Shown: positions 3,888-52,721 of the stretch, one piece after another | Layout of the letters: every line of letters starts with the position of its first letter | Position numbering within the stretch: the stretch's first letter is position 1 | Assembly: GCA_036517155.1 (NCBI GenBank) | Contig: DATDXY010000019.1 | Coordinates: forward strand, 9,913 to 73,912 | DNA: 64,000 nt | Origin: Minisyncoccota bacterium | GTDB lineage: Bacteria; Patescibacteriota; Minisyncoccia; UBA6257; 02-FULL-45-10c | Direction: 5' to 3' | Notes under the pieces: generated by a model | The model's input: only the letters and a program-made list of their open reading frames with translations | What the model was told of the DNA's origin: nothing | The model's database searches: none | Made by a program: the position numbers and the translations under genes

Positions 3888-5861
3888 TTAGAGAAATGGC
3901 ACTAACAAAAGCGCCACAATGTTAATGACTTTGATAAGCGGATTAATTGCTGGTCCGGCCGTGTCTTTGTACGGATCGCCAACCGTGTCACCAGTAACAG
4001 CGGCTTTATGCGCGTCCGAGCCTTTGCCGCCAAAATTGCCGGATTCGATATATTTTTTCGCGTTATCCCACGCGGCGCCGCCCGAAGTCATGGAAAGCGC
4101 CAAGAAAATTCCGCCAATGATAGAACCCATCAAGAATCCGCCCAACGCGAGCGGCCCAAGCAAGAATCCGACCGCGATCACTGACACAATCGGCAACAGC
4201 GCCGGAAAAATCATTTGTTTCAATGCGGCTTTAGTGACAATATCCACGGCGCGAGCATAATCCGGCTTTGCTTTTCGTTCCATAATTCCCGGGATTTCCC
4301 GGAATTGGCGGCGCACTTCTTCTACCACCGCACCAGCAGTTTTACCTACCGAACGCATTGCGATGGAAGCAAACCAATAGGTAATTGCCACGCCCAGCAA
4401 TAAACCAATCAATACGGATGGATCTTGAATATCAAAAGGAATAAATTTCCCGGCTTTTTTCATAAATTCAAATCCATAACCGGCAAACAACACTAAGGCT
4501 GCTAGCCCAGCTGAGGCAATAGCATATCCCTTGGTCACCGCTTTCGTGGTATTCCCCACCGCATCTAGGGCATCCGTAATTTTTCGCACTTCTTCCGGAG
4601 CATTACTCATCTCCGCAATGCCGCCGGCATTATCAGTAATCGGACCAAAGGCATCAATCGCTACTACCATGCCAGAAACTGACAACATAGAAACTGCGGC
4701 AATCGCAATCCCGTACAAATCGGCAACTAAGTAGCTGCCGAAAATTGCCGCGACAATAATGATCGCCGGGATTACCGTCGCTTCCATGCCGACAGACAAA
4801 CCCATAATAATATTTGTGCCATGTCCGGACACAGACGCATTCGCAATAGATTTTACTGGGCGGAAACTTTTAGAAGTATAGTAATCCGTTACCACCACCA
4901 TCAGCGCCGTAACGGCAAGGCCAATCAACGCGCTGATATAAATTCTCCACGCATCTCCGGCAAAATAATATTTGGTTAACGGATAAAAAGCCGCTGCGGA
5001 AATTACGATAGTCGCAATTAAGCCCTTATAGAGCGCGCCCATAATTGTCCCTTCGGAACTCATTCGCACAAATAAACTTCCGATTAAAGAAGCCACGATG
5101 GCAAACCCGCACAACACTAGCGGGAAAATGACAAATTTCACATCTGGTAAAAATGAACCGAGCAGCATCACTGCCGAAAGCGTAACGGCATAGGTTTCGA
5201 AAAGATCCGCTGCCATACCGGCGCAATCGCCCACGTTGTCACCGACATTATCCGCAATTACGCCTGGATTGCGAGGATCATCTTCCGGAATGCCGGCTTC
5301 CACCTTACCAACTAAATCCGTACCCACGTCCGCCGCTTTGGTAAAAATACCGCCGCCCAAACGGGCAAAGATAGAAATTAAACTGGCGCCAAAACCCAGA
5401 CCAATCAAGGCTGGAACATTTTTCGTAGCAAAATAAAATCCGGCCACCGCCAGCAAACCTAGCGCCACTACCAGAAATCCAGTTACCGCTCCGGATCGGA
5501 ATGCCAGCAATAACGCCGCATTCAAACCGTTCTTGGCCGCTTCCGCGGTTTTGGCATTAGAACGAACAGCGATATTCATACCGATATAACCAGCTAATGC
5601 CGATGCTGCTGCGCCAATCAAGAAACCAACCGTAACCGCGCCGCCAAGCCAATAATACAAAGCCAGCGCCAAGATAAGCGCTACTACGGCAATCGCTTTA
5701 TATTGCCGATTCAAATAAGCTTTGGAGCCAATTTGAATTGCTCGAGAAATTTCTTGCATCGTTTCATTACCGGATGATTTCCCCCGAAGCCAAAAAATCA
5801 CGTACGCGCTATATACTACGGAAAGGACAATCGGTACAAAAATAGATAAATAGAGATTCAT
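3888..5861 (-). CDS. hppA: Membrane-bound H+/Na+-translocating pyrophosphatase
   Basis: 657 aa polytopic protein with the signature [12 protein letters not shown] motif and many transmembrane helices. Confidence 0.95.
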
Positions 5862-7273: not shown

Positions 7274-7750
7274 CTAATTATTGAATATCACCGGAGACAC
7301 ATATGGCCCCAGAATTATCCTGGTCTTGGATTTTCCCTTCTTCAGGATCAAGTATTCAGCCGGTCCACGCACCCGTACATTAAAATGAATAGAGGAAGAT
7401 CCTCGTAATTGGACCTCTCCTCCGCTAAGTTCGGCAATGCGATTTTTCAGTTCCTTCAACCAGACTTTATCCACTGCATAACCGTCAAACACTGCCCAGA
7501 ATGCATCATAAACCGCTTCTTCGGAAAAAGCAGAAAAGTCCGGTGTCTCTAGCTTACTCAAAGCGACTGCGGTATATTCGTAGATTTTCCTCCGATCATT
7601 CAGCAGTTTCGTTTCAGTCATAGTAGCGGTGTCTGATTCATAAGAGTTATAGGATTCTCTCTGAAACTTCAGAATGGGCGTCCAATTCTCCGCGTAAGCA
7701 ATTTGCATTGCTCCGCACATCACGGCAACGGCCAACATTTGTCTCAACAT
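7274..7750 (-). CDS. Hypothetical secreted protein
   Basis: 158 aa with a signal peptide (MLRQMLAVAVMCGAMQIAYA); no recognisable domain. Confidence 0.5.
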   Translation of the reverse strand: MLRQMLAVAVMCGAMQIAYAENWTPILKFQRESYNSYESDTATMTETKLLNDRRKIYEYTAVALSKLETPDFSAFSEEAVYDAFWAVFDGYAVDKVWLKELKNRIAELSGGEVQLRGSSSIHFNVRVRGPAEYLILKKGKSKTRIILGPYVSPVIFNN

Positions 7751-7834
7751 TTCGCGCGACCTCCTTATAATTTATTAATGCTGCTATATACTACTCTGCT
7801 TTTCGTTATACTATATAATTAGTATTTTGTCAAT

Positions 7835-10186
7835 TTATTGTACTTTCACCGTTGCGTCAAAAGATTGTTCCCCTTCCGCATTGCCACAAATCAGATTGTA
7901 CGTTGTAGAAATTATTGGCGACACTCGAACCGAACCAAAAGTTTTTATACTCGCGCCAAGGGCCGGAACTATCCGGCAAGTATCGGCAAAACGGCAACTC
8001 CATGCCAGTTCGGATTCTCGGACAAAAACGGAACGTGTATCCAAAACCGAAGGCAGGGCGGTAAAGGCGCAGATTGGCACTTCGGCTAATTTCACAATAA
8101 CCGATCGGGTGGTTGTCCCTAATGGCCCCTTACAAGTCAGACCGTAGGTTAATTCTTTTTTTGCCGAACCGACAAATGTTTGGTTGCCGTTGGTTGGTTG
8201 GTTGCCGCTCCAAGCGCCTAATGCCACGCAGGTATCCGCATCTTGAGTAGTCCAGCTAATTGCATATTCTGATGGGACTCCGAGCGTCACTTTTTCCGCC
8301 TTGCCATTGGCACTGATATCAATGACCGGCGGCCCTTTTGGTGGAGGTGGATTCACTACCGCTACATTTATATAAGCGATGCTGGATATTTTACCATCGC
8401 CTTGCACTAGTCGTAGTACACCATACCGATATACGCCAGGAGGATCATTAAAAATCTTTTCACCAAAAGGCACATTGCACATTTCGGATTCCACCGGCTC
8501 ATTTACCACCCCTTCAAAAGTTGGTGTGCCAGAATTCAAATCAATATTAAATTGGCATTGACCGCCGTCTTGGATTTCCGACCAACCGCCAGAGGCATCA
8601 CGACTGGCCTTATTGTCACCATTTAAATCTCTGCTTGCCGAAACCCATAAAGAAACCGGTTTGCCACGAACCACTCGAATGCTCCGGCCATACATTACAC
8701 CATCCAAACTCACGCCCGCTTCCGCGATTGGCAGAGGAATTATTCTCGGAGTAATTGGGCTGCTAGAAATAATTTCTTCTGACGAACCAACGATGTTTAT
8801 TGTCACCGAATCCGATGCGGAAGAAAAACCAGGACAATACATTTTATACGTGTGAGTGCCTACTGTGGAATTATTCACCGTTTGTGTTTCCGCTTTGCTT
8901 TTCACGCCCAACCAGCCGGGGCCATAGGCAATACAATAACGATCCAGATTCCAAGAAATTTCAAACGAAGCTGGCGCATTTAATGTTATTGGGCCATCTT
9001 GGCCATTTACTTTCAAATCCAATTTTGGTTCCGCTACCGGTGTTGGCGCCGCTTGAAAAATCGGTGGTTCCGGTTCCGCTGGCGTTATAACTTCTGGTGG
9101 TTTTGACAATGGCGGCGCTGGCAAAGTTGGCGTTTGTACGCGAATGGTAACCGATGATCGCAACTTTCCTCCCAACTCCGGATATTTTCCTAACGCCTCC
9201 AAAGAATAGCGGGTGGTAAATTTCGGAAATACCGTTATGGAACCAGTATTGGAAACTCTGCCAATCCCCTGATCGATGGTTATTGATTCCGCATTACTGA
9301 CATTCCAATTTAATGTTACTGCTTCTCCTTTTTTTATTTCGGTTACGTTCCCCGTTAATTGCCCGGCGGGTGGCGGAGGAATGTCGCCCACTTTAACAGT
9401 GACCGTTTTGGTAATGCTGCCCGTTTGAGCAGATTTACTACCATCCACCACTCCCATACAGGTGAACTTATGAGTATAGACACCGGTAGGAACATTAAAA
9501 AAAGTATTACGTCCGGACGTCGTATTAGCGGAAAAATTATCCGGCATTTTGCCACTTAATTGGCATTGGGTGCCAGGATTGGTTGCTTGCCAGACTACAG
9601 TATAGCTGCCACCCTCTGGAACTGCGTTATCCGATGCGGTCACAGACATCCTCTGGGTTAACGGCGCGCAAGCCGGCACAGTTTTGCTCGGCCAAATAAA
9701 ATCCAATCCAACCCAACATGCGCTGTCTCTCTGGCACGATGGCCATCGTTGGCATATCCGTTCCGAAAAATTACAATCCCAATGATCAAAAATTTCTACT
9801 TTATCAGCAAGAGGTGGCTTCATAACTTCTACCGTAATATTGCCGCCAACACAGCTTTCCGCCAGCAAACGCTCCCCCTCCGAATAAATAATAGCGGTAT
9901 CAAAACGATTTAAGGATCGATCTTCCGGAAAAAAATTATCTGCAGTCGGATTAAATGAGTCGGCAATTTCTCGAGGAATCGTAAAAATAACATTCAACTT
10001 AGATAACACGACATTATCGCGGGTGGGGGTTGGACTATTATATCGCTTTTGACACAATACTTTTCCTGAGGTCTGATCACAAGGCAAACCACTGTCAACA
10101 TATCCCTCAACCGCATGAGTGGTAATTGCGCTAATTAAAAAACTGAATAATGCGCCAATAATTAAAATAAATCCTGTCTTTCGCAT
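7835..10186 (-). CDS. Large Cys-rich secreted/surface protein with three poly-Pro-linked beta-sandwich-like repeats
   Basis: 783 aa with a signal peptide (MRKTGFILIIGALFSFLISAITTHA) and many Cys. Three repeated modules are each preceded by a PPPP/PPLSKPP linker (…VTLNWNVSNAESITI…, …ITLNAPASFEISWN…, …VTLGVPSEYAISWTT…). Confidence 0.6.
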   Translation of the reverse strand: MRKTGFILIIGALFSFLISAITTHAVEGYVDSGLPCDQTSGKVLCQKRYNSPTPTRDNVVLSKLNVIFTIPREIADSFNPTADNFFPEDRSLNRFDTAIIYSEGERLLAESCVGGNITVEVMKPPLADKVEIFDHWDCNFSERICQRWPSCQRDSACWVGLDFIWPSKTVPACAPLTQRMSVTASDNAVPEGGSYTVVWQATNPGTQCQLSGKMPDNFSANTTSGRNTFFNVPTGVYTHKFTCMGVVDGSKSAQTGSITKTVTVKVGDIPPPPAGQLTGNVTEIKKGEAVTLNWNVSNAESITIDQGIGRVSNTGSITVFPKFTTRYSLEALGKYPELGGKLRSSVTIRVQTPTLPAPPLSKPPEVITPAEPEPPIFQAAPTPVAEPKLDLKVNGQDGPITLNAPASFEISWNLDRYCIAYGPGWLGVKSKAETQTVNNSTVGTHTYKMYCPGFSSASDSVTINIVGSSEEIISSSPITPRIIPLPIAEAGVSLDGVMYGRSIRVVRGKPVSLWVSASRDLNGDNKASRDASGGWSEIQDGGQCQFNIDLNSGTPTFEGVVNEPVESEMCNVPFGEKIFNDPPGVYRYGVLRLVQGDGKISSIAYINVAVVNPPPPKGPPVIDISANGKAEKVTLGVPSEYAISWTTQDADTCVALGAWSGNQPTNGNQTFVGSAKKELTYGLTCKGPLGTTTRSVIVKLAEVPICAFTALPSVLDTRSVFVRESELAWSCRFADTCRIVPALGASIKTFGSVRVSPIISTTYNLICGNAEGEQSFDATVKVQ

Positions 10187-10271: not shown

Positions 10272-10694
10272 CTAGGACTGGGGACGGGGGCGCTGCCGTT
10301 GTAAAAATCGGCATTGAGCATTTCGGATAGTATTGTCAATCTCTCTTTTCCAGATTTCCTGTTCGCGAAAATGATTCTCAATCACCGTTGCAACGTGCCG
10401 CTTGTAATTTTGAGCAATAAATTTTTTCCCAAAATAAATAAAAACTCTATAACGGTACACGATAATTCTCTCTACTCCCTGCACGTTCCAAATACAGCGA
10501 GCCAGTAGGTGTGATTGATTTTTTTTGCCATTGGAAGCAACCGGACAAAATTTCGAAGGACCATCATAGTCCTCGGAGTCATTAGTGGTCAATTGCTTAT
10601 TAAAATGACACTTGAGAATCGATGTGCCATCTTCTTCAATCAACATTGAGTGATTTCTTTCATTCATATAGTATCCCTCCGTTTCAATGTGCAA
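10272..10694 (-). CDS. Hypothetical protein
   Basis: 140 aa ORF with no recognisable motifs; the start may be the internal Met (MNERNHSML). Confidence 0.35.
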   Translation of the reverse strand: MHIETEGYYMNERNHSMLIEEDGTSILKCHFNKQLTTNDSEDYDGPSKFCPVASNGKKNQSHLLARCIWNVQGVERIIVYRYRVFIYFGKKFIAQNYKRHVATVIENHFREQEIWKREIDNTIRNAQCRFLQRQRPRPQS

Positions 10695-10737
10695 ACAAAT
10701 TCCTATATTCAGTATACCATTTCATACATTTTAAAAT

Positions 10738-11118
10738 TTATATATTTTCAAAATATTTTATATCACAATCTTTTAACTCATTTGTCAATGTGATAGCAAT
10801 CAAATCAATCCGCCATCCTTTTTTATCCCCTACTAAATTTTCATTTGCGCCAACGTATAAAGATGCGGTGCGTTGGAGTTTTTTTAATTTTGAAGGCGTT
10901 AAATTATCTTCCGGCTGAATATTCAGCGGTTGATTATTATATTGTCGGATTGTTTTCACTTCCACAAAAACTAATACTCCATTTTTATCTTTGGCAATAA
11001 TATCTATCTCGCCCCACGGTTTCCGAAAGTTCCGATCAATAATCCGGCAACCGTGTTTTTGTAAATACTGAAAGGCGAGATCTTCGCCAAGCTTGCCAAT
11101 GGATTGTTTGTTATTCAT
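10738..11118 (-). CDS. yraN: YraN family (UPF0102) endonuclease
   Basis: 126 aa; LGEDLAFQYLQKHGCRIIDRNFR…GEIDIIAKDKNGVLVFVEVK is the characteristic YraN/UPF0102 signature. Confidence 0.85.
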   Translation of the reverse strand: MNNKQSIGKLGEDLAFQYLQKHGCRIIDRNFRKPWGEIDIIAKDKNGVLVFVEVKTIRQYNNQPLNIQPEDNLTPSKLKKLQRTASLYVGANENLVGDKKGWRIDLIAITLTNELKDCDIKYFENI

Positions 11119-11590
11119 AAAATTGTTTTACGTTTTACACTACAATGTATTTTCCTATAAAACTGGGTAAATTGTAAAACGTAAAACAATTTTACTAAAT
11201 TACGCTTATACACAAAATATTGTTTAACGTTAAACAATTTGTTTAGCCGGTGTTAAACAAAAACAGGTTGTTTAACATTGAAATTGTTTCACGTTTTACA
11301 TTTTCCTACAAATAGACGTAAATACAAAATAATGTTTTACACTTAATGTAAAACATATTTTATAAAATAGGCGTAAAACATTTTAAATGTTTTACATTAT
11401 TTTGCGACAGATAGATTTTAAGCTTAAATAAGGTAAATTGCCGGATTGCCGAATTACTTTGCCGTATTTCACCTCACCACCGTTAAACAAATTTGTTTAA
11501 CGTGGTGTTAAACACTTTTGTTTAACACTCGTAAGGGGGAGCGGCTGGGGAATTGTTTCACGTTTTGTTTAACACTTAAGTAAATAACAA
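11119..11590. promoter_or_regulatory. Dense array of palindromic operator-like sites (TGTTTAAC/GTTAAACA family and TGTTTTAC/GTAAAACA family) in the divergent intergenic region
   Basis: Perfect palindromes at 11221-11236 (TGTTTAACGTTAAACA), 11481-11502 (CGTTAAACAAATTTGTTTAACG) and 11373-11395 (GTAAAACATTTTAAATGTTTTAC). Inverted repeats at 11251-11277, 11505-11528 and 11332-11356. The AATTGTTT(T/C)ACGTTTTACA unit occurs at 11121, 11170 (inverted), 11281 and 11551. Confidence 0.5.
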
Positions 11591-11591
11591 A

Positions 11592-11620
11592 TTGACGCCC
11601 ATGAGTTTAGGGGATAGTAT
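11592..11620 (+). promoter_or_regulatory. Sigma70-like promoter (TTGACG-17 bp-TAGTAT) for the 11666 gene
   Basis: -35 at 11592-11597, 17 bp spacer, -10 at 11615-11620; strong RBS AAGGAGG before the ATG at 11666. Confidence 0.45.
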
Positions 11621-11665
11621 AGAGCTGTTATTTAAAAATTTACAAAACTAAAAAAGGAGGAGAAT

Positions 11666-12292
11666 ATGCTCTTATCCAATTACTTGGGTAATTTGGTCAA
11701 GTTGATTGCCTTACTATTCATAGCGCAGCTTATGAATTGCCAACACCAACCTGTGTTAGCAGAAACATACACTCTTGTTAATGAAATTGGCGAGGAAACT
11801 AGGGGGCAATTCAAAATCAAAATTGATGAAGTAAAAGTCCTTGGAATACCGTTCTTAGAATTGGATATCAGAAAAATTATCTTGGGTAATGCAACTTTGT
11901 ATCTGCACTATCATTACCAGCAAGAAAATGGAATAATCAATTTTTCCAATCCAATCGACGACAGAAATGGTTATACCAATTACTTTTCTCAAAAAGTATC
12001 TGCTGGATTAATTGAGTCCGGTCAATTGGAAACTGTTTTTGATTACAAGCCTTCTTACCAACAGGATTTTGGCGTTCTAACTCACCATCTTGTTCTGACT
12101 AAAACTGGCAATGAAAAACAAAAATGTTTTACACTGCTATCCGCGTCTATTATTTCTCGAGGAGGAATTTATCTCACTACGATCATTATTCATGCGCGCA
12201 TCTACGTCAGTGACCCCAATATGATGTTGCCACTGATTAATGAAGTGGCGGAACGCGTAGTGCAAGAATTCACTCACAGTAAAAAGTCATAA
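11666..12292 (+). CDS. Hypothetical secreted protein
   Basis: 208 aa with an N-terminal hydrophobic signal/anchor (LVKLIALLFIAQLMNCQ) and a strong RBS; no known domain. Confidence 0.55.
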   Translation: MLLSNYLGNLVKLIALLFIAQLMNCQHQPVLAETYTLVNEIGEETRGQFKIKIDEVKVLGIPFLELDIRKIILGNATLYLHYHYQQENGIINFSNPIDDRNGYTNYFSQKVSAGLIESGQLETVFDYKPSYQQDFGVLTHHLVLTKTGNEKQKCFTLLSASIISRGGIYLTTIIIHARIYVSDPNMMLPLINEVAERVVQEFTHSKKS

Positions 12293-22097: not shown

Positions 22098-22478
22098 ATG
22101 AAAATTAAATTTTTCGCAATTTTACTTCTACTAACCCTTGCGCTTCCAGCGACATCGGGTGCGGCTGGTTTAGTGCCCTGCAATGGCAACGACTGTGATT
22201 TTTGTGATCTTTTGACGCTTGGAAAAAATCTGATTAATTGGTTTGTGGAAATCTCTTTTGTATTCGCGGTTCTCTTTTTTGCCTGGGGCGCAATTGTTAT
22301 AATGACCGCCGGGGGATCACCGGGGCAATTCAGCAAGGGAACAACTATTATCTACACGGTCCTCACGGGAATTGGTATACTACTATTAGCTTGGGTATTT
22401 ATCGGCACCCTGCTGCAAGTATTAACCGGGTCGCCGTCCAAATTACCCTGGAGCGAAATCCAATGTTCAGTAAAATAA
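22098..22478 (+). CDS. TrbC/VirB2-like pilin family protein (paralog 1)
   Basis: 126 aa; signal peptide (MKIKFFAILLLLTLALPATSGAA) plus two closely spaced TM helices, the VirB2/TrbC topology. Confidence 0.5.
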   Translation: MKIKFFAILLLLTLALPATSGAAGLVPCNGNDCDFCDLLTLGKNLINWFVEISFVFAVLFFAWGAIVIMTAGGSPGQFSKGTTIIYTVLTGIGILLLAWVFIGTLLQVLTGSPSKLPWSEIQCSVK

Positions 22479-22843
22479 ATAAAACTGTATTCCAAAAATT
22501 GGTTTTTCTTAATGGAATCCTCTTTGCCCAAGGAAGCCGTTTTGGCGGGGAAACACCCTCCGCCGGCGGCAGCGTCACTAAAATTTCTCTTCCGGCCGTC
22601 CTTGGCATCCGCACTATCCAGGAACTGATTGATAGAATTATAAATTTTCTCTTGATTATAGGCACTTCCATTTTCACCGGTATGGTTTTATGGGCGGCCT
22701 ATCAGATTCTCACCGCTGGCGATAATCCGGAAAACGCCGCCGCTGGCCGAAGAACTATTTGGCACGCAACGATCGGCTATACCATTCTGTTACTTTCCAA
22801 GGGTATTGTGCTGGTCATCCAAAAAGTCTTAGGCGGCCAATAA
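22463..22843 (+). CDS. TrbC/VirB2-like pilin family protein (paralog 2)
   Basis: Start re-assigned to the ATG at 22463 (MFSKINKTVFQKLVFL…). Two TM helices (IINFLLIIGTSIFTGMVLWAAYQIL and TIGYTILLLSKGIVLVIQ). The track ORF 22238-22843 has an implausible N-terminal extension. Confidence 0.45.
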   Translation: MFSKINKTVFQKLVFLNGILFAQGSRFGGETPSAGGSVTKISLPAVLGIRTIQELIDRIINFLLIIGTSIFTGMVLWAAYQILTAGDNPENAAAGRRTIWHATIGYTILLLSKGIVLVIQKVLGGQ

Positions 22844-22915
22844 ACTGACAAATTTTTCTACGAATGATATACTCTAGACATATCCTGAAAGGTCGAGATT
22901 CAGAATCACACATCA

Positions 22916-23245
22916 ATGAAACAACTTATTAAAAAAATCGCTGCCGGCGCCGCTTTATTGGCTCCGACCGCATTCGCGCAAAATAGAGCGGTACCGCAAG
23001 TTCCGATTTCCTCTACCAATGATATTTTCAATATTATTGACCGGGTGTTGAATTTAGCGGCGACTCTCTTTTTCACTGTCGCGGTCTTCTTTATTTTCTG
23101 GGCAGGTTGGCTCTATCTCAATGGCGCCAGTAATGAAGAAAATTTAGGGAAAGCGAAAAATCAGCTGATTTATGCCGCGGTGGCAATTTTCGTCGGACTG
23201 ATTGCTTTCAGTTTCCCGCGATTAATTGAAAACTTCGTTCGATAA
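22916..23245 (+). CDS. TrbC/VirB2-like pilin family protein (paralog 3)
   Basis: 109 aa; signal peptide (…AALLAPTAFA) plus two TM helices. Confidence 0.5.
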   Translation: MKQLIKKIAAGAALLAPTAFAQNRAVPQVPISSTNDIFNIIDRVLNLAATLFFTVAVFFIFWAGWLYLNGASNEENLGKAKNQLIYAAVAIFVGLIAFSFPRLIENFVR

Positions 23246-31388: not shown

Positions 31389-32930
31389 TTATTGCGCTTC
31401 TTTCAACCGATATTGAAAGGCCTCGGCTAAATGATCAATAGTTACTCGCGGGGTAACCGATAAATCGGCAATGGTTCGAGCGGTTTTCATGATTCGATAA
31501 TAACTGCGAGCGGATAATAACGCTTTTTCACTCATTTGTTTCAAAAATTGTTTCGCTGGCGTATCCAAATCGATAATGACTTCGCATTGTTTGGAGCTCA
31601 TTTCCGAATTGGTCAATACAGAAATACCCGCTCGTTTGAATCGTTCTTTTTGTAGTTCCCGCGCGGCGATTATTCTGTTCCGCAACGCATCCGATTCCAA
31701 ATACTTGCTGGAGGTGGCTTGCAATTGCTCAATTTTTACCCGAGGCACGGTTACCTGAAGATCAATTCGATCTAGTAAGGGACCGGATACTTTCTTTTGA
31801 TATCGCAATACTTCAAAAGCATTGCAACGGCATTCTTTTTCTTCATCGCCATAATAGCCGCACGGACAGGGATTCATTGCCGCCGCAAGCATAAAGCGCG
31901 CCGGGAAAACCACATTATCTTTTACTCGGGACACCACTACTCGCCCGCTTTCCATTGGCTGGCGTAGCGCTTCCAATAAATCTCGGCGGAATTCCGGAAG
32001 TTCGTCCAGAAACAATACTCCCCGATGCGCTAGGCTCACTTCTCCCGGACGCGGATGCTGTCCGCCACCGATAATCGCTGCCGAGGAAGCAGTTTGGTGC
32101 GGGGAGCGAAACGGTCGCCAAGCGATAAATGGATGTAAATTCAATAATCCGGCGGCGCTATAGATTTTTGTGATCTCAATAATTTCTTCGCTTTGCGGCG
32201 GCGGCAACAGCGAAGCCAGCGCTTGCGCTAGCATGGTTTTACCCGATCCTGGACTACCCTGCATTAATAAATTGTGGCCGCCCGCGGCAGCAATCATCAA
32301 CGACCGCTTGGCATGTTCTTGCCCTTTGATTTCCGCAATATCCACAAAAGATTCTTGCATACGAGTATGCTGGGAAAGATCCGTGGCAGATTGAGGAATG
32401 ATGATTTGGCGTCCCTCTAGATGATCAATTAATTCTCTCAGAGTACGAACAGGGAAAACGGTAACGCCGGAAATAATCGCCGCTTCCGCGGCATTGTCTG
32501 CCGGAACAAATAATTCCTTTATCCGAGAACGTTTGGCCATCTCTGCCATATTCAGCGTTCCGCTGACGCCTCGGACATTGCCGTTTAATGCTAGCTCGCC
32601 GATAAAAAGCGCTCGATCGGAATCAAAATCTTTAATCTGCTGGCTGGCAAGCAAATAACCGAGCGCAATCGCTAAATCATAATGCGAGCCGGATTTTTTC
32701 ACATCCGCCGGGGCAAGATTTACCACGATTTTCCGATTTTCTTTCGTCGGCGGTTTCACGCCGATATTTTTGAGCGCCGAACTTACCCGCTCTTTCGCTT
32801 CCGACACTGCTTTATCCGCCAAACCCACAATCGTAAAACTATGAAGACCGACGTTGATGTCGGTCTCAATTTCAATTCGCTTTGCCTCAATGCCGTCAAT
32901 CGCTGCGGAAAATACTTTTGCGACGCTCAT
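31389..32930 (-). CDS. comM: YifB/ComM family Mg-chelatase-like AAA+ ATPase
   Basis: 513 aa; Lon-like N-domain, Walker A GSPGSGKT, ChlI-type AAA+ module. Confidence 0.9.
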   Translation of the reverse strand: MSVAKVFSAAIDGIEAKRIEIETDINVGLHSFTIVGLADKAVSEAKERVSSALKNIGVKPPTKENRKIVVNLAPADVKKSGSHYDLAIALGYLLASQQIKDFDSDRALFIGELALNGNVRGVSGTLNMAEMAKRSRIKELFVPADNAAEAAIISGVTVFPVRTLRELIDHLEGRQIIIPQSATDLSQHTRMQESFVDIAEIKGQEHAKRSLMIAAAGGHNLLMQGSPGSGKTMLAQALASLLPPPQSEEIIEITKIYSAAGLLNLHPFIAWRPFRSPHQTASSAAIIGGGQHPRPGEVSLAHRGVLFLDELPEFRRDLLEALRQPMESGRVVVSRVKDNVVFPARFMLAAAMNPCPCGYYGDEEKECRCNAFEVLRYQKKVSGPLLDRIDLQVTVPRVKIEQLQATSSKYLESDALRNRIIAARELQKERFKRAGISVLTNSEMSSKQCEVIIDLDTPAKQFLKQMSEKALLSARSYYRIMKTARTIADLSVTPRVTIDHLAEAFQYRLKEAQ

Positions 32931-42222: not shown

Positions 42223-42720
42223 ATGCAATTTCAAGTTCCGCAATTTATTGAAACCGAAGATAAAATTATCGGCCCACTCACACTAAAACAATTTCTCTAT
42301 CTCGCTCTGGCTGGAGGAGCGTGTTTTGGATTATATTTTATTTTAGACACCTGGCTGTGGCTTCTAGTTTCTATTTTTGTAGGAGCCATCGCCGCCGCCT
42401 TGGCATTCATCAAAGTCAATGGCCGCCCATTGCCGGTAATTGCTTTTGCCGCTTTTCAATATTATTGGAAGCCAAGATTTTATTTGTGGAAACACCAGGC
42501 AGAAACCGGACCAACAACTCATTTTCCGGAAGTGAAAAAACCGATTTTGGAACGATTGCGGGAACAATTACTGACTTCCAAAGCACCCATCCCAAAAAGA
42601 GAAAAAATCCTGAAACAACCGATTTTGGAAACCGCTGGCAAGCAAAGTAAAGAGCGATTTGAAATCCTTCGACGCATCACGGGAGAACGCGAGGTCTCTC
42701 GCCGCGTGGATTATCGTTAA
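42223..42720 (+). CDS. PrgI/VirB3-like small membrane protein
   Basis: 165 aa; MQFQVPQFIETEDKIIGPLTLKQFLYLALAGGACFGLYFIL followed by a second TM. It sits immediately upstream of VirB4, as in Gram-positive T4SS (PrgI-PrgJ). Confidence 0.45.
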   Translation: MQFQVPQFIETEDKIIGPLTLKQFLYLALAGGACFGLYFILDTWLWLLVSIFVGAIAAALAFIKVNGRPLPVIAFAAFQYYWKPRFYLWKHQAETGPTTHFPEVKKPILERLREQLLTSKAPIPKREKILKQPILETAGKQSKERFEILRRITGEREVSRRVDYR

Positions 42721-42743
42721 CCGAACTAGTATAATAAGGTAAC

Positions 42744-43397
42744 ATGCCAAACACACAAGAAGCATCGCCAATCCAACAATTTATTGAATTGGAGTCAATT
42801 GAAAATGGCGTTATCCATTTGAAAAATGGTGGATTAAGGAAAATTTTGCTGGTGTCCGGAATTAATTTTGACCTAAAATCGGAAGAGGAGCAGGGGATGA
42901 TTACTTACGCCTTTCAAAGTTTTCTCAATACCCTGGATTTTTCTCTCCAATTCTTTATCCATTCTCGAAAGCTCAATATTGACGATTATTTGGTGAAATT
43001 GGAAGATCGAGAAAAACAAGAACCCAGTGAATTGCTCAAAAATCAAATTTCCGAATATCGGGAATTTATCCGCGCGTTTGTCAGTCAGAACGCGATTATG
43101 GCAAAAACATTTTTCGTGATTGTTCCTTATAATCCATTGCGAATTCCCAAAGCCGGTACCGCCTTCACGGAAAAATTGACTCGATTATTCAGCAAAAGCA
43201 CCCCCAGCGAACAACCCCAAACTAGCGAACAAGAACAAATGGAACAACTGAATCTTCGCATAGATCAGGCAATCGCGGGCTTGAACCAAATTGGGCTTCG
43301 GGCCGTGCCATTAGATGATGATGAACTTTCGGAGCTGTTTTATAACCTCTATAATCCCGCGTCAGTCGAGCAAAAGAAAATTGACACGTCTGAATAA
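42744..43397 (+). CDS. VirB4/TrsE-family N-terminal domain, separated from the ATPase domain by an in-frame TAA
   Basis: 217 aa; IHLKNGGLRKILLVSGINFDLKSEEEQGMITYAFQSFLNTLDF matches the conserved N-terminal region of Gram-positive VirB4/TrsE proteins. It is in the same frame as 43401-45110. Confidence 0.55.
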   Translation: MPNTQEASPIQQFIELESIENGVIHLKNGGLRKILLVSGINFDLKSEEEQGMITYAFQSFLNTLDFSLQFFIHSRKLNIDDYLVKLEDREKQEPSELLKNQISEYREFIRAFVSQNAIMAKTFFVIVPYNPLRIPKAGTAFTEKLTRLFSKSTPSEQPQTSEQEQMEQLNLRIDQAIAGLNQIGLRAVPLDDDELSELFYNLYNPASVEQKKIDTSE

Positions 43398-43400
43398 TTT

Positions 43401-45110
43401 ATGGAATCAGAAAAAAAACTTATCAATATCATTGCCCCATCCGGCCTGCAAGTAGAGCCACAGTACTTGAAATTGGGGAATAAACTCGCAAAGACTTTGT
43501 TCGTATTTTCCTACCCCCGTTATCTGGCCACGGGTTGGTTTTCCGGAATTATTAATATGCCGGAATTATTGGATATCTCCATTTTCATCCACCCAGTAGA
43601 TACGGTACTCGCGCTTCGCACCCTCCGCCGAAAAGCTACTCAAGTGGAATCCCAACTGATTGAACGCCAACAAAAGGGGTTGGTTCGGGATCCGATTCTA
43701 GAAACCGCTTTTCAAGACGTGGAATCTCTGCGCGATTCCCTGCAGCAATCCCGCGAACAATTATTCAATGTTGGTGTATACATCACTTTTTACGCCGACA
43801 CGGTGGAACAATTAAATAAATTGGAAAATAAAATTTCCGCGTTTTTAGAAAGTCGTTTGATTTACGCTAAACCGGCGTTATTTCAACAATTAGAAGGGTT
43901 CGCATCCACTCTTCCGCTTAATCAAGACAAATTAGAAGTCCATTCGCCGCTTAATTCCAGTCCACTTTCCTCAATTTTCCCATTCACCTCAGCAAACCTT
44001 ACTTCGGATGAGGGTATTCTTTATGGCATTAATCGGCACAATAATACTTTGGTTATTTTTGATCGATTTTCACTGGAAAATGCTAATTTAGTTATTTTCG
44101 CCAAGTCTGGCAGTGGCAAATCTTATGCGACCAAACTGGAAGCGCTGCGATTATTGATGATGGGCGTGGATGTAATTATTATTGACCCGGAAAATGAATA
44201 TGAAAACATGGCAAAGGCAGTTGGTGGTAGTTATTTCCGCATCTCTCTCGCCTCCGACCACCATATCAATCCCTTTGAACTTCCTATTGTCGCGTCCGGC
44301 GACGATCCGAGTGATTCGTTGAAATCCCACATCGTGAACTTATCCGGATTATTGAAAATAATGCTCGGCAAGCTTACTCCGGAAGAAGATGCGATCTTGG
44401 ATCGCGCTTTGGCGGAAACTTACGCTTCCCACGATATTGTCGCGGGAAAAGATTTTTCCCAAGCGGTGCCGCCACTGTTGGAAGATTTAGAAAAAATTCT
44501 CCTGAATATGGAGGGTGGTCGGGGATTAAGCCAACGTTTATATAAATTCACTCAGGGCAGTTATGCCGGTTTTACCAATCAACCAACTAATGTCGATATT
44601 AAAAATCGGCTGATTGTCTTTTCTATCCGTGACCTCGAAGAGGAATTACGGCCAATCGCAATGTATATTGTGTTGAATTTTATTTGGAATCTTATCCGCG
44701 CCAATCTTAAAAAACGGGTGCTGATTGTGGATGAGGCGTGGGTGTTGATGAAATATGAAGACGGGGCTTCGTTTATGTTTGGTTTGGTAAAACGTTGCCG
44801 AAAATATTTCTTAGGAGTCACCACAATTACCCAAGACGTGGAAGATTTCTTGAAATCTCCGTATGGCCGGCCGATTATTACCAATTCTTCGTTACAACTC
44901 CTTCTTAAACAATCACCAGCGATGATTGATGTAGTAATTAAGTCCTTCAATCTTACCGACGGAGAAAAAAGCCTTTTATTGGAAGCGGGGGTTGGCGAAG
45001 GATTATTTTTTGCCGGTTTAAATCATGTCGCGATTCAGGTGGTCGCTTCGTATATTGAAGATAAAATTGTGACTACCAAACCAGAACAAATTCTGGAACA
45101 ACATTCATGA
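43401..45110 (+). CDS. VirB4/TrsE-family type IV secretion ATPase (C-terminal ATPase domain)
   Basis: 569 aa; Walker A FAKSGSGKSYAT, Walker B LIVDEAW, VirB4-type C-terminal motifs. Confidence 0.85.
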   Translation: MESEKKLINIIAPSGLQVEPQYLKLGNKLAKTLFVFSYPRYLATGWFSGIINMPELLDISIFIHPVDTVLALRTLRRKATQVESQLIERQQKGLVRDPILETAFQDVESLRDSLQQSREQLFNVGVYITFYADTVEQLNKLENKISAFLESRLIYAKPALFQQLEGFASTLPLNQDKLEVHSPLNSSPLSSIFPFTSANLTSDEGILYGINRHNNTLVIFDRFSLENANLVIFAKSGSGKSYATKLEALRLLMMGVDVIIIDPENEYENMAKAVGGSYFRISLASDHHINPFELPIVASGDDPSDSLKSHIVNLSGLLKIMLGKLTPEEDAILDRALAETYASHDIVAGKDFSQAVPPLLEDLEKILLNMEGGRGLSQRLYKFTQGSYAGFTNQPTNVDIKNRLIVFSIRDLEEELRPIAMYIVLNFIWNLIRANLKKRVLIVDEAWVLMKYEDGASFMFGLVKRCRKYFLGVTTITQDVEDFLKSPYGRPIITNSSLQLLLKQSPAMIDVVIKSFNLTDGEKSLLLEAGVGEGLFFAGLNHVAIQVVASYIEDKIVTTKPEQILEQHS

Positions 45111-49430: not shown

Positions 49431-49755
49431 TTTTAAAACATTGTTCTAATTGTAGGATAATTTCTGCCTTTGGTACACGCTTAATGGCAGAACTAACAAT
49501 AATCAACACATCCATTGACGGAATCATCGTAATATAAGTTTGTAAGGCTTGAAATATACTTCGTTTAATCTGATTTCTTTCTACGGCTTTAGCGGCTACT
49601 TGCTTGCTGACAATTATACCAAAACGGCAGTGGGGGAGGGTAGAATTAAAAAATTTTAATAAAAAAATGTCGCTTTTTTTAGTAAAACGACTTTTTCTAC
49701 CAACTACCCCTTGAATGGGCAGGCGATATTTTTTTGGCAGCATACTACGCCGCAA
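49423..49755 (-). CDS. rnpA: Ribonuclease P protein component
   Basis: 110 aa; LPKKYRL…[24 protein letters not shown] is the RnpA signature; the start may be the Met at MLPKK. Confidence 0.85.
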
Positions 49756-49879
49756 GACGATTTCGCCCCTTTTGCCGGCGGCGCGACAAAACTCTTCGGC
49801 CGCTGGAAGTCCGGCTTCGCTTTAAAAAGCCATGAGTACGTGCCCGTTTTCTCTTTTTGGGCTGATAAGTTCTGGACAT
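49745..49879 (-). CDS. rpmH: 50S ribosomal protein L34
   Basis: 44 aa from the ATG at 49877-49879: [44 protein letters not shown]. Confidence 0.85.
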
Positions 49880-49949
49880 AGCCTTGAGCTTATCATACGC
49901 CTTTACAAACATCAACCATCTCATCACAATTAGGAGATATACTCCGGTC

Positions 49950-49980
49950 AAAATGAGTTTTCCACAGATTTTCCACACCT
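49950..49980. promoter_or_regulatory. Two direct DnaA-box-like 9-mers (TTTTCCACA) upstream of dnaA
   Basis: Boxes at 49958-49966 and 49969-49977 (consensus TTWTNCACA), spaced 11 bp apart. Confidence 0.5.
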
Positions 49981-50035
49981 TATTAAGTTTTTCGGCTTTT
50001 GACGCTGGCGTTAGTAAAAACTAGAATTACCTTAC

Positions 50036-51412
50036 ATGGAAGAACTACAACAACTTTGGCAAACCGCGCTTGGAGAAATTGAATTACAAATTTCTCGGCC
50101 AAATTTTGTGACGTGGTTAAAAAATAGCCGGCTTTTAGACAAACAAGAAGGAGTTGCGGTTGTAAGCCTGCCCAATAATTTCGCTAAAGAGTGGGTGGAG
50201 AATAAATATCATAAAATTATTCTGGCCGCGCTTCGAAATATTGATGAGACCACGAAAAAGGTGGAATACACCATCGAGAGTAAATCTGAACAATTATTAA
50301 AATCCCGGCAACGGAAACTGCATCGCGCCGAAGAACCAGTATATGTGGAGCAATCGCCGCTTTTGGAATTGAAGATTGATTCTGAAACCAATCTCAACCC
50401 CCGTTATTCATTAAGTTCTTTTATTGTTGGTTCTTCGAATGAGTTGGCGTACGCCGCCGCTCAAGGAGTCATAAACGAAGTGGGGAAAAAATATAACCCG
50501 TTATTTTTTTACGGTGGGGTAGGATTGGGAAAAACCCACCTTATTCAAGGAATTGGCAATGAAATTAAAAAAGTGTATGAAAATAAAATTAAAGTTAGAT
50601 ATGTTCCTTCAGAAATGTTTTTAAATGAAGTGGTAGCTGGGATTCGTAATAAACGGATGGAGGATATTAAAGAAAAATATCGTTTTGTGGATGTTTTAAT
50701 TATAGATGATATCCAATTTATTGGTGGAAAAGAAAAAACAGAAGAAGAATTTTTCCATACTTTTAATGCGCTGTATGAAAATAATAAGCAAATTATCATC
50801 TCCTCAGATCGTTCCCCTCGATTCTTACCCACCCTACAAGAACGCTTAAGCTCTCGATTTGAGGGGGGGATGGTCTGTGAATTAAACCAACCCGATTTTG
50901 AATTGCGGGTAGCGGTATTAAAAACTAAACTCCAAGATAAAAACAACTCTCTGCCGGACGCGATTATTAACTTAATTGCCGCTAAAGCCCAAAGGAATTT
51001 TCGGGAATTAGATGGGATATTAAATCGAATTCTTTTTTATCAAAACACTAAACACTCTGCCATTTCTGAAAAAGCCGCGGAAGAACTCATTAACGAAACC
51101 ATCCAACAACCAATCAAAAACATAAACCCTAATAACGTTATTAAGGCAGTAGCGGATTATTTTAACGCCCCCATCACCGATCTCACGGGTAGGTCTCGCA
51201 AGAAAACCATGGTAGAACCGCGCCAAATTGCTATGTTTCTTCTGCGTGATATGTTAAATATGTCCTACCCATCTATTGGGGAAAAATTGGGGAAAAGAGA
51301 TCATACCACCGCCATTTATTCTTACGTCAAACTTTCCAAAGATATCGCGAAAAACCAAAATTTGAGTCAAAAAATTATTACCATTAAAGAAATGGTGGAT
51401 AAAATCGTATGA
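50036..51412 (+). CDS. dnaA: Chromosomal replication initiator protein DnaA
   Basis: 458 aa; AAA+ Walker A GGVGLGKTHL, box VII, C-terminal DNA-binding domain. Confidence 0.95.
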   Translation: MEELQQLWQTALGEIELQISRPNFVTWLKNSRLLDKQEGVAVVSLPNNFAKEWVENKYHKIILAALRNIDETTKKVEYTIESKSEQLLKSRQRKLHRAEEPVYVEQSPLLELKIDSETNLNPRYSLSSFIVGSSNELAYAAAQGVINEVGKKYNPLFFYGGVGLGKTHLIQGIGNEIKKVYENKIKVRYVPSEMFLNEVVAGIRNKRMEDIKEKYRFVDVLIIDDIQFIGGKEKTEEEFFHTFNALYENNKQIIISSDRSPRFLPTLQERLSSRFEGGMVCELNQPDFELRVAVLKTKLQDKNNSLPDAIINLIAAKAQRNFRELDGILNRILFYQNTKHSAISEKAAEELINETIQQPIKNINPNNVIKAVADYFNAPITDLTGRSRKKTMVEPRQIAMFLLRDMLNMSYPSIGEKLGKRDHTTAIYSYVKLSKDIAKNQNLSQKIITIKEMVDKIV

Positions 51413-51614
51413 GAACTTATTTGAATAATAACCTGTGGATATATTCTTATTACTTTGTTGGTAAATTAACTAATAAACAACTAATCAAAAATCTTTTAAC
51501 ACCTAACCACAACTTTATTCAGTATGCTTGTGGAGAAAAATACTTGAATTTTATTAGAGATTTCCGATTTATCAACAGATTCTTAATTACCAATAACTAC
51601 TAGATATAAATATT
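51413..51614. other. oriC-like AT-rich dnaA-dnaN spacer with DnaA boxes
   Basis: TGTGGATAT (51435-51443), TGTGGAGAA (51529-51537), TTATCAACA (51569-51577); very AT-rich, consistent with a DNA-unwinding element. Confidence 0.5.
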
Positions 51615-52721
51615 ATGAAATTAATAGTATTACATACTAATTTAAAAAATGGGTTGGGGATTGTGTCTAGGGCTTTAGGGGAGGGTTCAAATCTTCCGAT
51701 TTTAAAAAACGTTTCTATTAAAACATTGAATAATAAGATTCGATTAGTAACTACTAACCTAGAATTAGCCGCTACTCATTATGTATCTGGAAAAATTATA
51801 GAAGAAGGTTCGATTACTGTGCCGTTTTCAATACTATACGGGATTGTTAGTAACTGCGACAGTGAACGAATCACTTTGGAGGTAAAAAATAATACGCTTT
51901 ATTTTCAAACCGATAATTATAATGCCCAAATTCAAGGCCTACCTGAAGAAGAGTTTCCAATTATTCCTAAAATTACCAACGATAAGAATTATATAATTAT
52001 TAATGCCGAATTATTAAAATCCTCACTCTTAAAAGTTGTTTCCGCAGTTCAAATTTCCGAAATTCGACCAGAAATTAGCGGAGTATTATTTAATTTCCAA
52101 TTAACTCATTTCAAGGTGGTTGGAACGGACAGTTTTCGGCTCGCGGAAAAAACTATTTCCGAAAAAGATTTTAAAAGTAATTTCCAAAGAGGATTTCAAG
52201 TAATTATTCCAATTAAAACCATTCAAGAAGTTATTCGGGTAATGAATAATGGTGATGTGGGAGTGTATATTGATCCAAACCAGATTTTATTTAAAACCGA
52301 AGAAGTAGAAATTATTTCCCGGCTTATTGACGGCGCGTATCCGGAATACGAAGCGATTATCCCAAAGGAATTCAGCATAGAATGCGATGTTTCTCAAGAA
52401 TCTTTTATGAATGCGGTTAAATTAGTGAGTAACGTCACTGGAAAAACCAATGATATTATCTTGAAAACTAAAGAAGGAAAAAAAGTATTGGAAGTGTATT
52501 CTGTAAATCAATTTGTCGGCGAAAATCGTTATTTGGTTCCAGCAAAGATTAAAGGCAAGGAATTTGAAGTAGCGTTTAATTGGCGCTATTTAATAGATGG
52601 ATTAAAAAACTTTGAAAGCGAAGAAATATATATAGGCGTAAATCAAGAAAACCGCCCAGTTTTACTCAGAACACCCAACGATTTTAGTTATTTCTATCTT
52701 TTAATGCCGATTAAGAACTAG
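51615..52721 (+). CDS. dnaN: DNA polymerase III beta sliding clamp
   Basis: 368 aa; three-domain clamp architecture immediately after dnaA. Confidence 0.9.
   Translation: MKLIVLHTNLKNGLGIVSRALGEGSNLPILKNVSIKTLNNKIRLVTTNLELAATHYVSGKIIEEGSITVPFSILYGIVSNCDSERITLEVKNNTLYFQTDNYNAQIQGLPEEEFPIIPKITNDKNYIIINAELLKSSLLKVVSAVQISEIRPEISGVLFNFQLTHFKVVGTDSFRLAEKTISEKDFKSNFQRGFQVIIPIKTIQEVIRVMNNGDVGVYIDPNQILFKTEEVEIISRLIDGAYPEYEAIIPKEFSIECDVSQESFMNAVKLVSNVTGKTNDIILKTKEGKKVLEVYSVNQFVGENRYLVPAKIKGKEFEVAFNWRYLIDGLKNFESEEIYIGVNQENRPVLLRTPNDFSYFYLLMPIKN

Follow-up and report, generated by a model that had tools for sequence, protein, structure and literature searches.

A stretch of 64,000 nt from the genome of a Minisyncoccota bacterium (contig DATDXY010000019.1; hereafter the window, whose positions serve as coordinates throughout) raises the question of why a single intergenic spacer should be packed with short dyad-symmetric sites. 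The spacer in question is long and AT-rich (29% GC) and separates two divergently transcribed genes, namely yraN, which encodes a UPF0102 nuclease, and o208, an orphan gene for a protein of 208 amino acids. An earlier note on this DNA had considered a multi-operator hub, a partition-like or nucleoid-organising site, and a structured RNA made of serial hairpins. The analysis described here favours the partition-like option: the spacer is probably a chromosomal centromere, that is, an expanded and sequence-shifted parS locus with ParB as its putative ligand. The ParB-parS kind of system is itself known, and the novel feature is a probable yraN-anchored, origin-proximal parS locus that has been expanded into an array of variant arms.

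A single half-site word is repeated in the yraN spacer

All sites of the array can be reduced to one word, (T)GTTT[A/T/C]AC. Accordingly, the two motif families A and B that had been distinguished before represent a single half-site whose sixth base may be A, T or C. The TGTTTNAC octamer occurs 26 times in the 64 kb, compared with 8.4 expected occurrences in whole-window shuffles (largest shuffle, 16), and 17 of the 26 copies fall in the interval 11124-11573. A first-order Markov simulation with the dinucleotide composition of the region itself, at 29% GC, yielded 0.46 octamers and a maximum of 6 in 5000 trials, versus the 17 observed. The same 450 bp contain 20 GTTT[A/C/T]AC heptamers, which are organized as 10 pairs. 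Four of these are divergent and one is convergent; in the other five, the heptamers are arranged in tandem (three contiguous pairs and one with a 5-bp gap) or head-to-head (one contiguous pair). No second cluster of this type was detected in the window, in agreement with the earlier statement that nothing else in the 64 kb resembles it.

Two assemblies obtained independently from other samples (L001 and L002; the numbers L001 to L168 denote fetched loci or contigs of relatives) show 100% identity over the array region, which is therefore no assembly artefact. Additionally, the ends of four other metagenome contigs coincide with the array's edge, at the yraN start or just inside it (L004 and L007 at window position 11085, L008 and L009 at 11106), which suggests assembly breaks at the repeats. 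The contig L003 (~9060-9290) carries an 11-base insertion relative to the window, somewhere within 10701-11700, and its yraN product was called with only 75 amino acids.

The array contains a palindrome orthologous to canonical parS

The half-site TGTTTCAC is one arm of the universal chromosomal parS site, which consists of TGTTTCAC followed by GTGAAACA. The palindrome TGTTTAACGTTAAACA at 11221-11236 matches canonical parS, TGTTTCACGTGAAACA, at 14 of 16 positions, and the two mismatches are located at the symmetric positions 6 and 11 (C6A/G11T). A search with the TGTTNCACGTGAAACA consensus revealed no parS match with at most one mismatch anywhere in the window, the best match being 11221-11236.

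The closest relative found, L168, encodes a YraN protein with 83% identity and has the same gene order as the window, comprising NUDIX, orphan, spacer, yraN, NusA, H+-PPase, trigger factor and ClpP. In L168, the site aligned with 11221-11236 is a perfect canonical parS (16/16). The window palindrome is accordingly a parS site that has changed in both arms in step. Comparative alignment of the region upstream of yraN, which the earlier note had put forward as a check, further revealed that half-site positions are conserved above the rest of the spacer (86% versus 65% identity between window and L168; Fisher p = 5.5e-7). Judged from this pairwise comparison, the half-sites show purifying selection. 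The array and its sites are as follows:

11119-11590, no strand: the whole array of 10 pairs of parS-arm half-sites and two other conserved motifs, recognized by its enrichment and by similar clusters upstream of yraN in relatives
11124-11139, plus strand: TGTTTTACGTTTTACA, two contiguous direct heptamers abutting the yraN start codon; the aligned L168 site is TGTAATACGTGAAACA on the yraN strand
11173-11188, minus strand: the tandem 16-mer of 11124-11139 in inverted orientation (TGTAAAACGTAAAACA on the plus strand), containing the TTTACA -35-like hexamer of yraN; identical in L168
11221-11236: TGTTTAACGTTAAACA, perfect 16-mer palindrome and sole full 16-bp parS-type dyad in the array
11252-11276: divergent pair GTTAAACA-N9-TGTTTAAC (arms at 11252-11259 and 11269-11276); core heptamers conserved in L168
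11285-11300, plus strand: TGTTTCACGTTTTACA, a canonical parS arm joined to a TGTAAAAC-type arm, with three mismatches to parS
11333-11355: convergent pair TGTTTTAC-N7-GTAAAACA; identical in L168
11373-11395: divergent pair GTAAAACA-N7-TGTTTTAC, a 23-nt odd palindrome; identical in L168
11482-11501: divergent pair GTTAAACA-AATT-TGTTTAAC with offset 13, an offset that recurs across relatives
11507-11526: divergent pair GTTAAACA-CTTT-TGTTTAAC; not conserved in L168
11554-11573, plus strand: direct pair TGTTTCAC-N4-TGTTTAAC; identical in L168

The segment corresponding to 11507-11526 lies in L168 partly in an alignment gap (indel), and its remainder is aligned to unrelated sequence. The asymmetric 16-mer TGTTTCACGTTTTACA recurs about eight times in L021 and four times in L034. 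The promoter-like hexamers of yraN (TTTACA-18-GAAAAT at 11178-11149) are overlapped by array sites.

Every site described in the earlier note was found in the sequence, with small corrections. The perfect 16-mer is the palindrome at 11221-11236, the inverted pair reported at 11251-11277 has its arms at 11252-11259 and 11269-11276, the perfect 22-mer at 11481-11502 reads CGTTAAACAAATTTGTTTAACG, the site at 11332-11356 reads ATGTTTTACA-N5-TGTAAAACAT, and the perfect 23-mer at 11373-11395 consists of 11-nt perfect arms around a single central T. At 11505-11528, inverted arms (GTGTTAAACA and TGTTTAACAC) do surround CTTT, but they are 10 bp long and not 11 bp. Three of the four units of about 19 bp are present (11120-11139, 11171-11190 in inverted orientation, and 11281-11300), whereas the fourth, from 11550, is only partial. 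The flanking genes and the promoter at 11592-11620 are as described. The observation as such was correct, but the relationship to canonical parS had gone unnoticed, as had the TTGCCG repeats at 11438-11464 and the presence of oriC in the same window.

An origin of the array in a mobile element was considered and dropped, as scans of viral contigs for TGTTTCACGTTTTACA and TGTTTAACGTTAAACA returned isolated single matches and zero clusters.

Conservation of the parS locus upstream of yraN in Paceibacterota

Conservation was examined in 80 loci that surround YraN homologues in species-representative genomes. Canonical parS, with at most two mismatches allowed, is matched 40 times in 1.31 Mb of Paceibacterota loci, and every match falls into the interval from -2.8 to +0.46 kb relative to the yraN start. 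By our own estimate, about 0.3 matches would be expected by chance; no such match was detected elsewhere in the flanks or beside parB genes in the same 1.31 Mb. Fragments of TTTCACGTGAAA make up the most over-represented 8-mers of the 600-bp segment preceding yraN; they are present in 16-25 of the 80 loci, whereas about 1-3 occurrences in all would be expected. The location upstream of yraN is retained throughout the 80 loci, and in Paceibacterota no gene other than yraN consistently stays beside the parS locus.

In most relatives, the site is located 17-125 bp upstream of the yraN start. The number of sites is usually small in more distant relatives, from one to a few. Upstream of yraN in L049, for instance, perfect parS copies are found at -52 and at about 1 kb, and a copy with one mismatch at about 1.8 kb. 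Relatives resembling Wolfebacteria, Harrisonbacteria and Liptonbacteria carry clusters of 4-24 arms with lineage-specific inner bases, and in the closer relatives TGTTT-N6-AAACA clusters with lineage-specific cores occupy the same place. The central hexamers are:

AGCGCT: L035, L041, L048
GTCGAC or GTCGCT: L040, L042
GCCGGC: L033
ACCGGC: L034
CCCGTG: L062, L064
AACGTT: window and L023 (in L023 as TGTTTAAC arms only)

Across lineages, variation is confined to arm positions 6-7, and neither TGTTT nor the final C nor the central CG changes. The geometry of neighbouring heptamers was counted over 30 cluster-bearing loci:

head-to-head (parS dyad), offset 7: 32
tandem direct, offset 7: 19
divergent, offset 13: 13
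direct, offset 12: 9
back-to-back (divergent), offset 7: 0

Some relatives carry a parS-type palindrome inside the yraN coding sequence (L041 at 10281-10296, L042 at 4216-4231 and L029 at 10120, as well as L054, L062, L065, L071 and L084 at +155 to +185 of yraN), which recalls the parS site inside B. subtilis spo0J; no parS-type palindrome is present inside the yraN gene of the window. Moreover, nine loci, including L010, L013, L015, L020, L025 and L030, contain a free-standing open reading frame (ORF) resembling LAGLIDADG homing endonucleases between the parS-arm cluster and yraN, on the opposite strand at -550 to -35 of yraN. It specifies 140-170 amino acids with the motif YIRGLxDGEGCF.

The array is origin-proximal and distinct from oriC

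The origin region of the window (49700-51650) is marked by yidC and rnpA at 48.8-49.8 kb, by rpmH, which was read by eye between rnpA and dnaA, and by the genes

50036-51412: dnaA
51615-52721: dnaN

Two TTTTCCACA DnaA boxes are located at 49958 and 49969, and four near-consensus boxes were found in the 203-bp spacer between dnaA and dnaN. The cumulative GC skew reaches its minimum at 48-50 kb. The plus-strand skew at third codon positions (GC3 skew) has mostly negative values over 2-49 kb and mostly positive ones beyond 52.7 kb, with a sign change at about 49.5-52.7 kb; this pattern depends little on which strand a gene occupies, and either side shows a small number of brief or faint deviations. 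The interval 11119-11660 contains no perfect DnaA box, the best match being TTATACACA at 11206. The GC3 skew and the DnaA boxes therefore place oriC at dnaA and the array, at a distance of 38.5 kb from dnaA and the skew switch in the left replichore, close to the origin but not at it.

Six loci of relatives have dnaA and dnaN 5-10 kb from the yraN cluster. The clusters of other relatives are flanked by genes belonging to the origin region of the window, and the location is origin-proximal wherever it could be judged.

Distant Paceibacterota also contain pairs of canonical DnaA boxes (TGTGGATAA) beside the parS-like site upstream of yraN, and such spacers occur without dnaA within 10 kb in L057 and L087 (both 9800-9830), L062 (9690-9730) and L021 (9785-9880). 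The word TGTGGATA is present in 25 of the 80 loci, compared with about three expected occurrences. In those distant lineages, yraN and not dnaA may be the location of oriC or of a DnaA-box cluster. A further recurrent block upstream of yraN, CCGATAA-N-TTGAAAAACCTAC(A/G)TTTT, was observed in L014 (~9655), L018 (~9860 and ~9935), L040 (~8068), L041 (~9795), L022, L025 and L052, being palindromic in the latter (AAAACCTACATATGTAGGTTTT) and absent from the window. We presume a resemblance of this block to the Thermotoga DnaA box AAACCTACCACC.

ParA and ParB in the clade

Genes for ParA and ParB were searched by tblastn with B. subtilis Soj and Spo0J sequences. A parA-parB pair with canonical architecture was detected in one of the 80 loci, L014, at a distance of 7 kb from yraN. 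In the genome of L018 (L018/L090), a single 160-kb contig carries both the yraN cluster and parAB, at a distance of 60 kb from each other. The protein database contains thousands of close homologues of ParB, whose ParB_N, HTH and ParB_C domains are standard, and the few with a source name belong to metagenome-assembled genomes (MAGs) of Patescibacteria, Paceibacterota or Wolfebacteria. No parS-like site was present near any parB gene examined, so that no parS candidate other than the yraN locus was seen. To look for covariation of ParB with site type, further pairs of ParB and yraN cluster were sought in the ParB contigs P0010, P0042, P0003, P0006 and P0075 and in a metagenome scan with the L014 ParB; these yielded only the L014 locus again, and the comparison comprises two pairs.

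No conserved DNA-binding gene is linked to the cluster, according to Pfam scans of 40 window ORFs and an all-against-all clustering of the ORFs from -3.5 to +2.5 kb of the yraN start in 30 loci. The clustering yielded only YraN, antisense artefacts and the LAGLIDADG-like ORF. This lack of a linked gene fits a trans-acting factor such as ParB.

The recognition region of the 120 closest ParB proteins reads GKSRETIAN-[T/A/S/N]-LRLL-[N/D/S/K/H]-LP...NESQAR, as compared with the canonical GKSRSHVANTMRLLALP...TAGHAR. Residues were mapped in Caulobacter numbering (for Gly201) by means of the conserved KSR, AN and HAR motifs. Arg173 is kept, positions 179 (T/A/S/N/G/C/V) and 184 (N/D/S/K/H) are variable, and Gly201-His202 is replaced by Ser-Gln. 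Residue 201 of ParB reads base 6 of the half-site, which is arm position 7 here, and R173 and G201 were conserved in all ParB orthologues of a published survey (PMC7383237). A deep mutational scan in the same study showed that parS is still bound with Ser201 and that substitutions at 179 and 184 are tolerated. The departures in the recognition residues are suggestive but not decisive. Single parS arms, including GTTTCAC, are bound by P. aeruginosa ParB at hundreds of sites, and 39 such heptamers lie inside its oriC partition complex (PMC5961200). A literature search for parS in Patescibacteria gave no papers, and one for parS together with 'Candidate Phyla Radiation' gave, among the papers listed, only word-start matches in unrelated ones.

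Other conserved elements and genetic neighbourhood

The two other conserved motifs of the spacer are:

11398-11412, minus strand: the 15-mer ATCTGTCGCAAAATA (read on the yraN strand), present in full in the window, L168, L023 and L034
11438-11464, plus strand: three TTGCCG[G/A/T]AT repeats, a reduced copy of the AAT[T/C]CGGCAAT array motif; two of the three are conserved in L168

The core of the 15-mer, CTGTCGCA, is also located upstream of yraN in L014, L016, L017 and L046, and the 15-mer sits between the CGGCAA repeats and the parS-arm cluster. Arrays of AAT[T/C]CGGCAAT are usually convergent, often arranged around a TTCGGCAATTGCCGAA dyad, and located 300-750 bp upstream of yraN, for example in L041 (9660-9770), L040 (7870-7990), L014 (9385-9440) and L017 (9625-9700). 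With a threshold of at least four copies per 90 bp, they were found in 12 loci upstream of yraN versus two loci in all other sequence examined. These arrays and the 15-mer characterize the spacer as a multi-factor region and not as a ParB pad alone.

The genes and the promoter flanking the array are:

10738-11118, minus strand: yraN, UPF0102 nuclease (Pfam UPF0102, E = 8.7e-24)
11592-11620, plus strand: promoter-like TTGACG-17-TAGTAT for o208, outside the site array; the block is conserved in L168 (alignment columns 50-95)
11666-12292, plus strand: o208, predicted as an ORF for a 208-residue orphan with a hydrophobic N-terminus

Genes identical to those of the window are also present on Rifle aquifer metagenome contigs, and the nearest named relatives of YraN belong to MAGs of Candidatus Wolfebacteria and Harrisonbacteria, with at most 60% identity. 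This places the groundwater organism among the Parcubacteria/Paceibacterota of the candidate phyla radiation. YraN, a D-loop nuclease, reportedly cooperates with ComM during natural transformation (bioRxiv 10.1101/2024.02.06.579203). A ComM-like Mg-chelatase/MCM-type ATPase is encoded at 31389-32930 (minus strand), 20 kb from yraN, and L014 contains a gene for DprA (7548-8441) at a distance of 1.6 kb from yraN; along with the YraN-ComM link, these genes indicate a neighbourhood rich in transformation-recombination functions. Genes resembling those of type IV secretion systems occupy 22098-23245 and 42223-45110 and include three ORFs with T4SS-pilin domains, a gene for a PrgI-family protein and one for a TraG/VirB4-like P-loop ATPase.

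Comparison with known half-site systems

The array shares with the chromosomal ParB(Spo0J)-parS systems of B. subtilis, C. crescentus and P. aeruginosa (TGTTNCACGTGAAACA) the same 8-bp arm (TGTTTCAC/TGTTTAAC), the same 16-bp dyad at 11221-11236, the origin-proximal location and, by orthology, the perfect parS of L168. Extra single arms around a full site are likewise a feature of the P. aeruginosa oriC complex (PMC5961200). In contrast to the few full sites that known systems spread over kilobases, about 20 arms are concentrated here in 450 bp; only one full palindrome is present, with the symmetric C6A/G11T change, whereas the other arms are tandem, convergent or divergent; parAB is not adjacent; and the central hexamer differs between related lineages, unlike the near-invariant chromosomal site.

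The Noc-NBS (TATTTCCCGGGAAATA) and KorB-OB systems, which are specificity variants within the ParB family, resemble the array in retaining the outer arm while inner or outer bases differ. The KorB-OB operator of RK2 is TTTAGCSGCTAAA, and the variant TGTTTAGCGCTAAACA of L041 contains TTTAGC-GCTAAA, which is close to it. The variable arm positions 6-7 include the base that is read by residue 201 in ParB and Noc (PMC7383237). In contrast to Noc, the ParB of the clade keeps R173, lacks the signature Q173/R201 and has S201 and Q202; moreover, the data presented here contain no evidence for a paralogue with a separate function.

In the parS sites of the plasmids P1 and P7, a ParB-family helix-turn-helix reads the heptameric BoxA (ATTTCAC), which occurs in direct and inverted copies within one centromere. 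The half-site of the array is a nearly identical heptamer, also in direct and inverted copies. P1 parS additionally needs BoxB hexamers and an IHF bend and adjoins parAB on the plasmid, whereas neither BoxB, nor an IHF bend, nor an adjacent parAB was seen at the array. The ribbon-helix-helix system of pSM19035 (omega/ParB-pSM) is similar with respect to contiguous direct and head-to-head 7-bp units and an array that overlaps promoters, but its word, WATCACW, is different, and no omega-like gene is located near the array.

Alternative explanations

The array might serve as an operator for some transcription factor of yraN, perhaps also of o208, for example a competence or recombination regulator, with the parS arm inherited or mimicked. 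Its overlap with the promoter-like hexamers and leader of yraN, the distance of 17-125 bp from the yraN start in most relatives, and the mixed direct and inverted geometries that are common for some regulators would suit this explanation, as would the role of YraN with ComM in transformation (bioRxiv 10.1101/2024.02.06.579203), since such genes are often tightly regulated. Ten site pairs over 450 bp, however, far exceed the need of a promoter, and relatives carry the exact universal parS 16-mer with extra copies 1-2.8 kb upstream and inside yraN, which is typical of parS. Neither the window nor the 30 related cluster-bearing loci contain a linked regulator gene, and ParB, the known binder of the parS sequence, exists in the clade. 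An operator is consequently regarded as unlikely. The consensus sequences of Rex, CRP and other regulators were dropped as candidates because the orthologous canonical parS of L168 accounts better for the motif. A centromere-like or nucleoid-organising array that is read heptad by heptad, by a ribbon-helix-helix protein of the ParR/omega type or by another nucleoid-associated protein instead of ParB, is a quite unlikely alternative. The tight clustering is plasmid-like, and contiguous 7-bp units in direct (19) and head-to-head (32) but never in back-to-back orientation (0) in the 30 loci recall the heptad iterons of pSM19035 (PMC9499535). The parS of that plasmid nevertheless needs at least four contiguous heptads (PMC9499535), whereas the runs of the array are only two long. 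Iterons of the pSM19035 omega and R1 ParR kind come as at least four contiguous copies with adjacent genes for the binder and NTPase, and the array has neither; in the window and in relatives alike, a small partner gene or parA/parM operon is missing beside it. Furthermore, the heptad is exactly the ParB half-site and belongs to an ortholog of canonical parS.

It is very unlikely that the spacer is a part or relic of a replication origin with the repeats as sites of an initiator or origin regulator. Its length, AT-richness and short words repeated in both orientations are origin-like, about 25 of the 80 relatives have DnaA boxes in the spacer (two TGTGGATAA in L057, L087 and L062), and dnaA is 5-10 kb away in six relatives. 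The GC3 skew, however, switches near dnaA/dnaN and not at 11 kb, so that the array has neither the DnaA-box cluster nor the sign change of an oriC; the perfect boxes flank dnaA, and the repeat word is no DnaA box, its inner bases varying by lineage, which those of DnaA boxes do not. An oriC at the array was thus rejected for this genome on the basis of GC3 skew, DnaA boxes and the position of dnaA and dnaN. A structured non-coding RNA or serial-hairpin leader, as had also been envisaged in the earlier note, is highly improbable. Many perfect inverted repeats are present, such as the pair 11118-11139 and 11173-11194 with 22-nt arms of 100% complementarity, and the C6A/G11T double change would also keep a stem. 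The array nevertheless scored no Rfam 15 family at the gathering threshold and, at E <= 1, only generic hairpin matches, mostly to microRNA-hairpin models and with scores far short of the gathering ones; the only terminator-like site in the spacer is a half-site pair (11248-11280), which leaves a candidate transcript without such an end. Relatives conserve the half-site word and not stems, with frequent direct repeats and variable spacings, and the RNA is unsupported because the conserved direct, convergent and divergent arrangements cannot all be stems.

A proposed ParB-bound centromere array

A centromere with ParB as its probable binder is suggested by the parS arm, by the orthology of the palindrome to canonical parS and by the class-wide origin-proximal location. 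Several observations weigh against this assignment. Only one of the ten pairs is a parS-type palindrome, and the tandem pairs with offset 7 and divergent pairs with offset 13 are recurrent and conserved. To our knowledge, a canonical ParB dimer does not load on tandem or divergent pairs, and these non-dyad arrangements are selected features beyond the simple picture of a ParB dimer on a palindrome. The array sites are placed directly on the yraN promoter and leader, as in an operator, and the CGGCAA arrays and ATCTGTCGCAAAATA are not explained by ParB. The tblastn search with the Spo0J and Soj queries detected no ParA or ParB gene in the 64-kb window. Since Ser201 is compatible with ordinary parS binding, the ParB differences are no proof of an altered specificity, and the ParB-to-site pairs obtained are two in number, namely L014 (D184) with TGTTTGCC arms and L018 (N184) with TGTTT[C/A]AC arms. 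Finally, the half-sites of P. aeruginosa trigger no long-distance spreading (PMC5961200).

In the mechanism proposed for the centromere, a ParB dimer would nucleate at TGTTTAACGTTAAACA (11221-11236), the putative loading site, and close as a clamp dependent on cytidine triphosphate. About 18 further GTTT[A/T/C]AC arms in tandem, convergent and divergent pairs would hold ParB dimers by single-arm or bridged contacts of lower affinity. The resulting partition complex, compact and of high occupancy at 38.5 kb from oriC, would serve ParA-driven segregation of the origin and probably the loading of SMC. Some repression of yraN by a complex over its promoter and leader is plausible, and yraN transcription is possibly dampened because the sites overlap both elements.

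A wider evolutionary scenario is put forward tentatively, as a possibility rather than an expectation. According to it, the parS of Paceibacterota would have changed its centre repeatedly by lineage (from CACGTG to AACGTT, AGCGCT, GTCGAC and GCCGGC) and would have been rebuilt at yraN as a plasmid-like array of tandem and divergent half-sites. Such a history would imply either serial shifts of ParB-parS specificity, with a Ser201 ParB and a non-canonical binding mode, or a second half-site-binding protein at the centromere.

Chromosomal parS is a textbook case of a DNA site that is nearly unchanged across bacterial phyla. A large uncultured radiation may differ in this respect, with a parS locus that is anchored at yraN, inner bases that drift, copy numbers from one to about 20 and arms that leave the simple dyad. 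The array represents a practical landmark of the origin region and centromere in fragmented assemblies of Patescibacteria, several contigs of which break exactly there. If the proposed history is true, these loci would provide a natural series for studying the co-evolution of a protein-DNA recognition pair and for asking how much of the palindrome ParB needs for loading.

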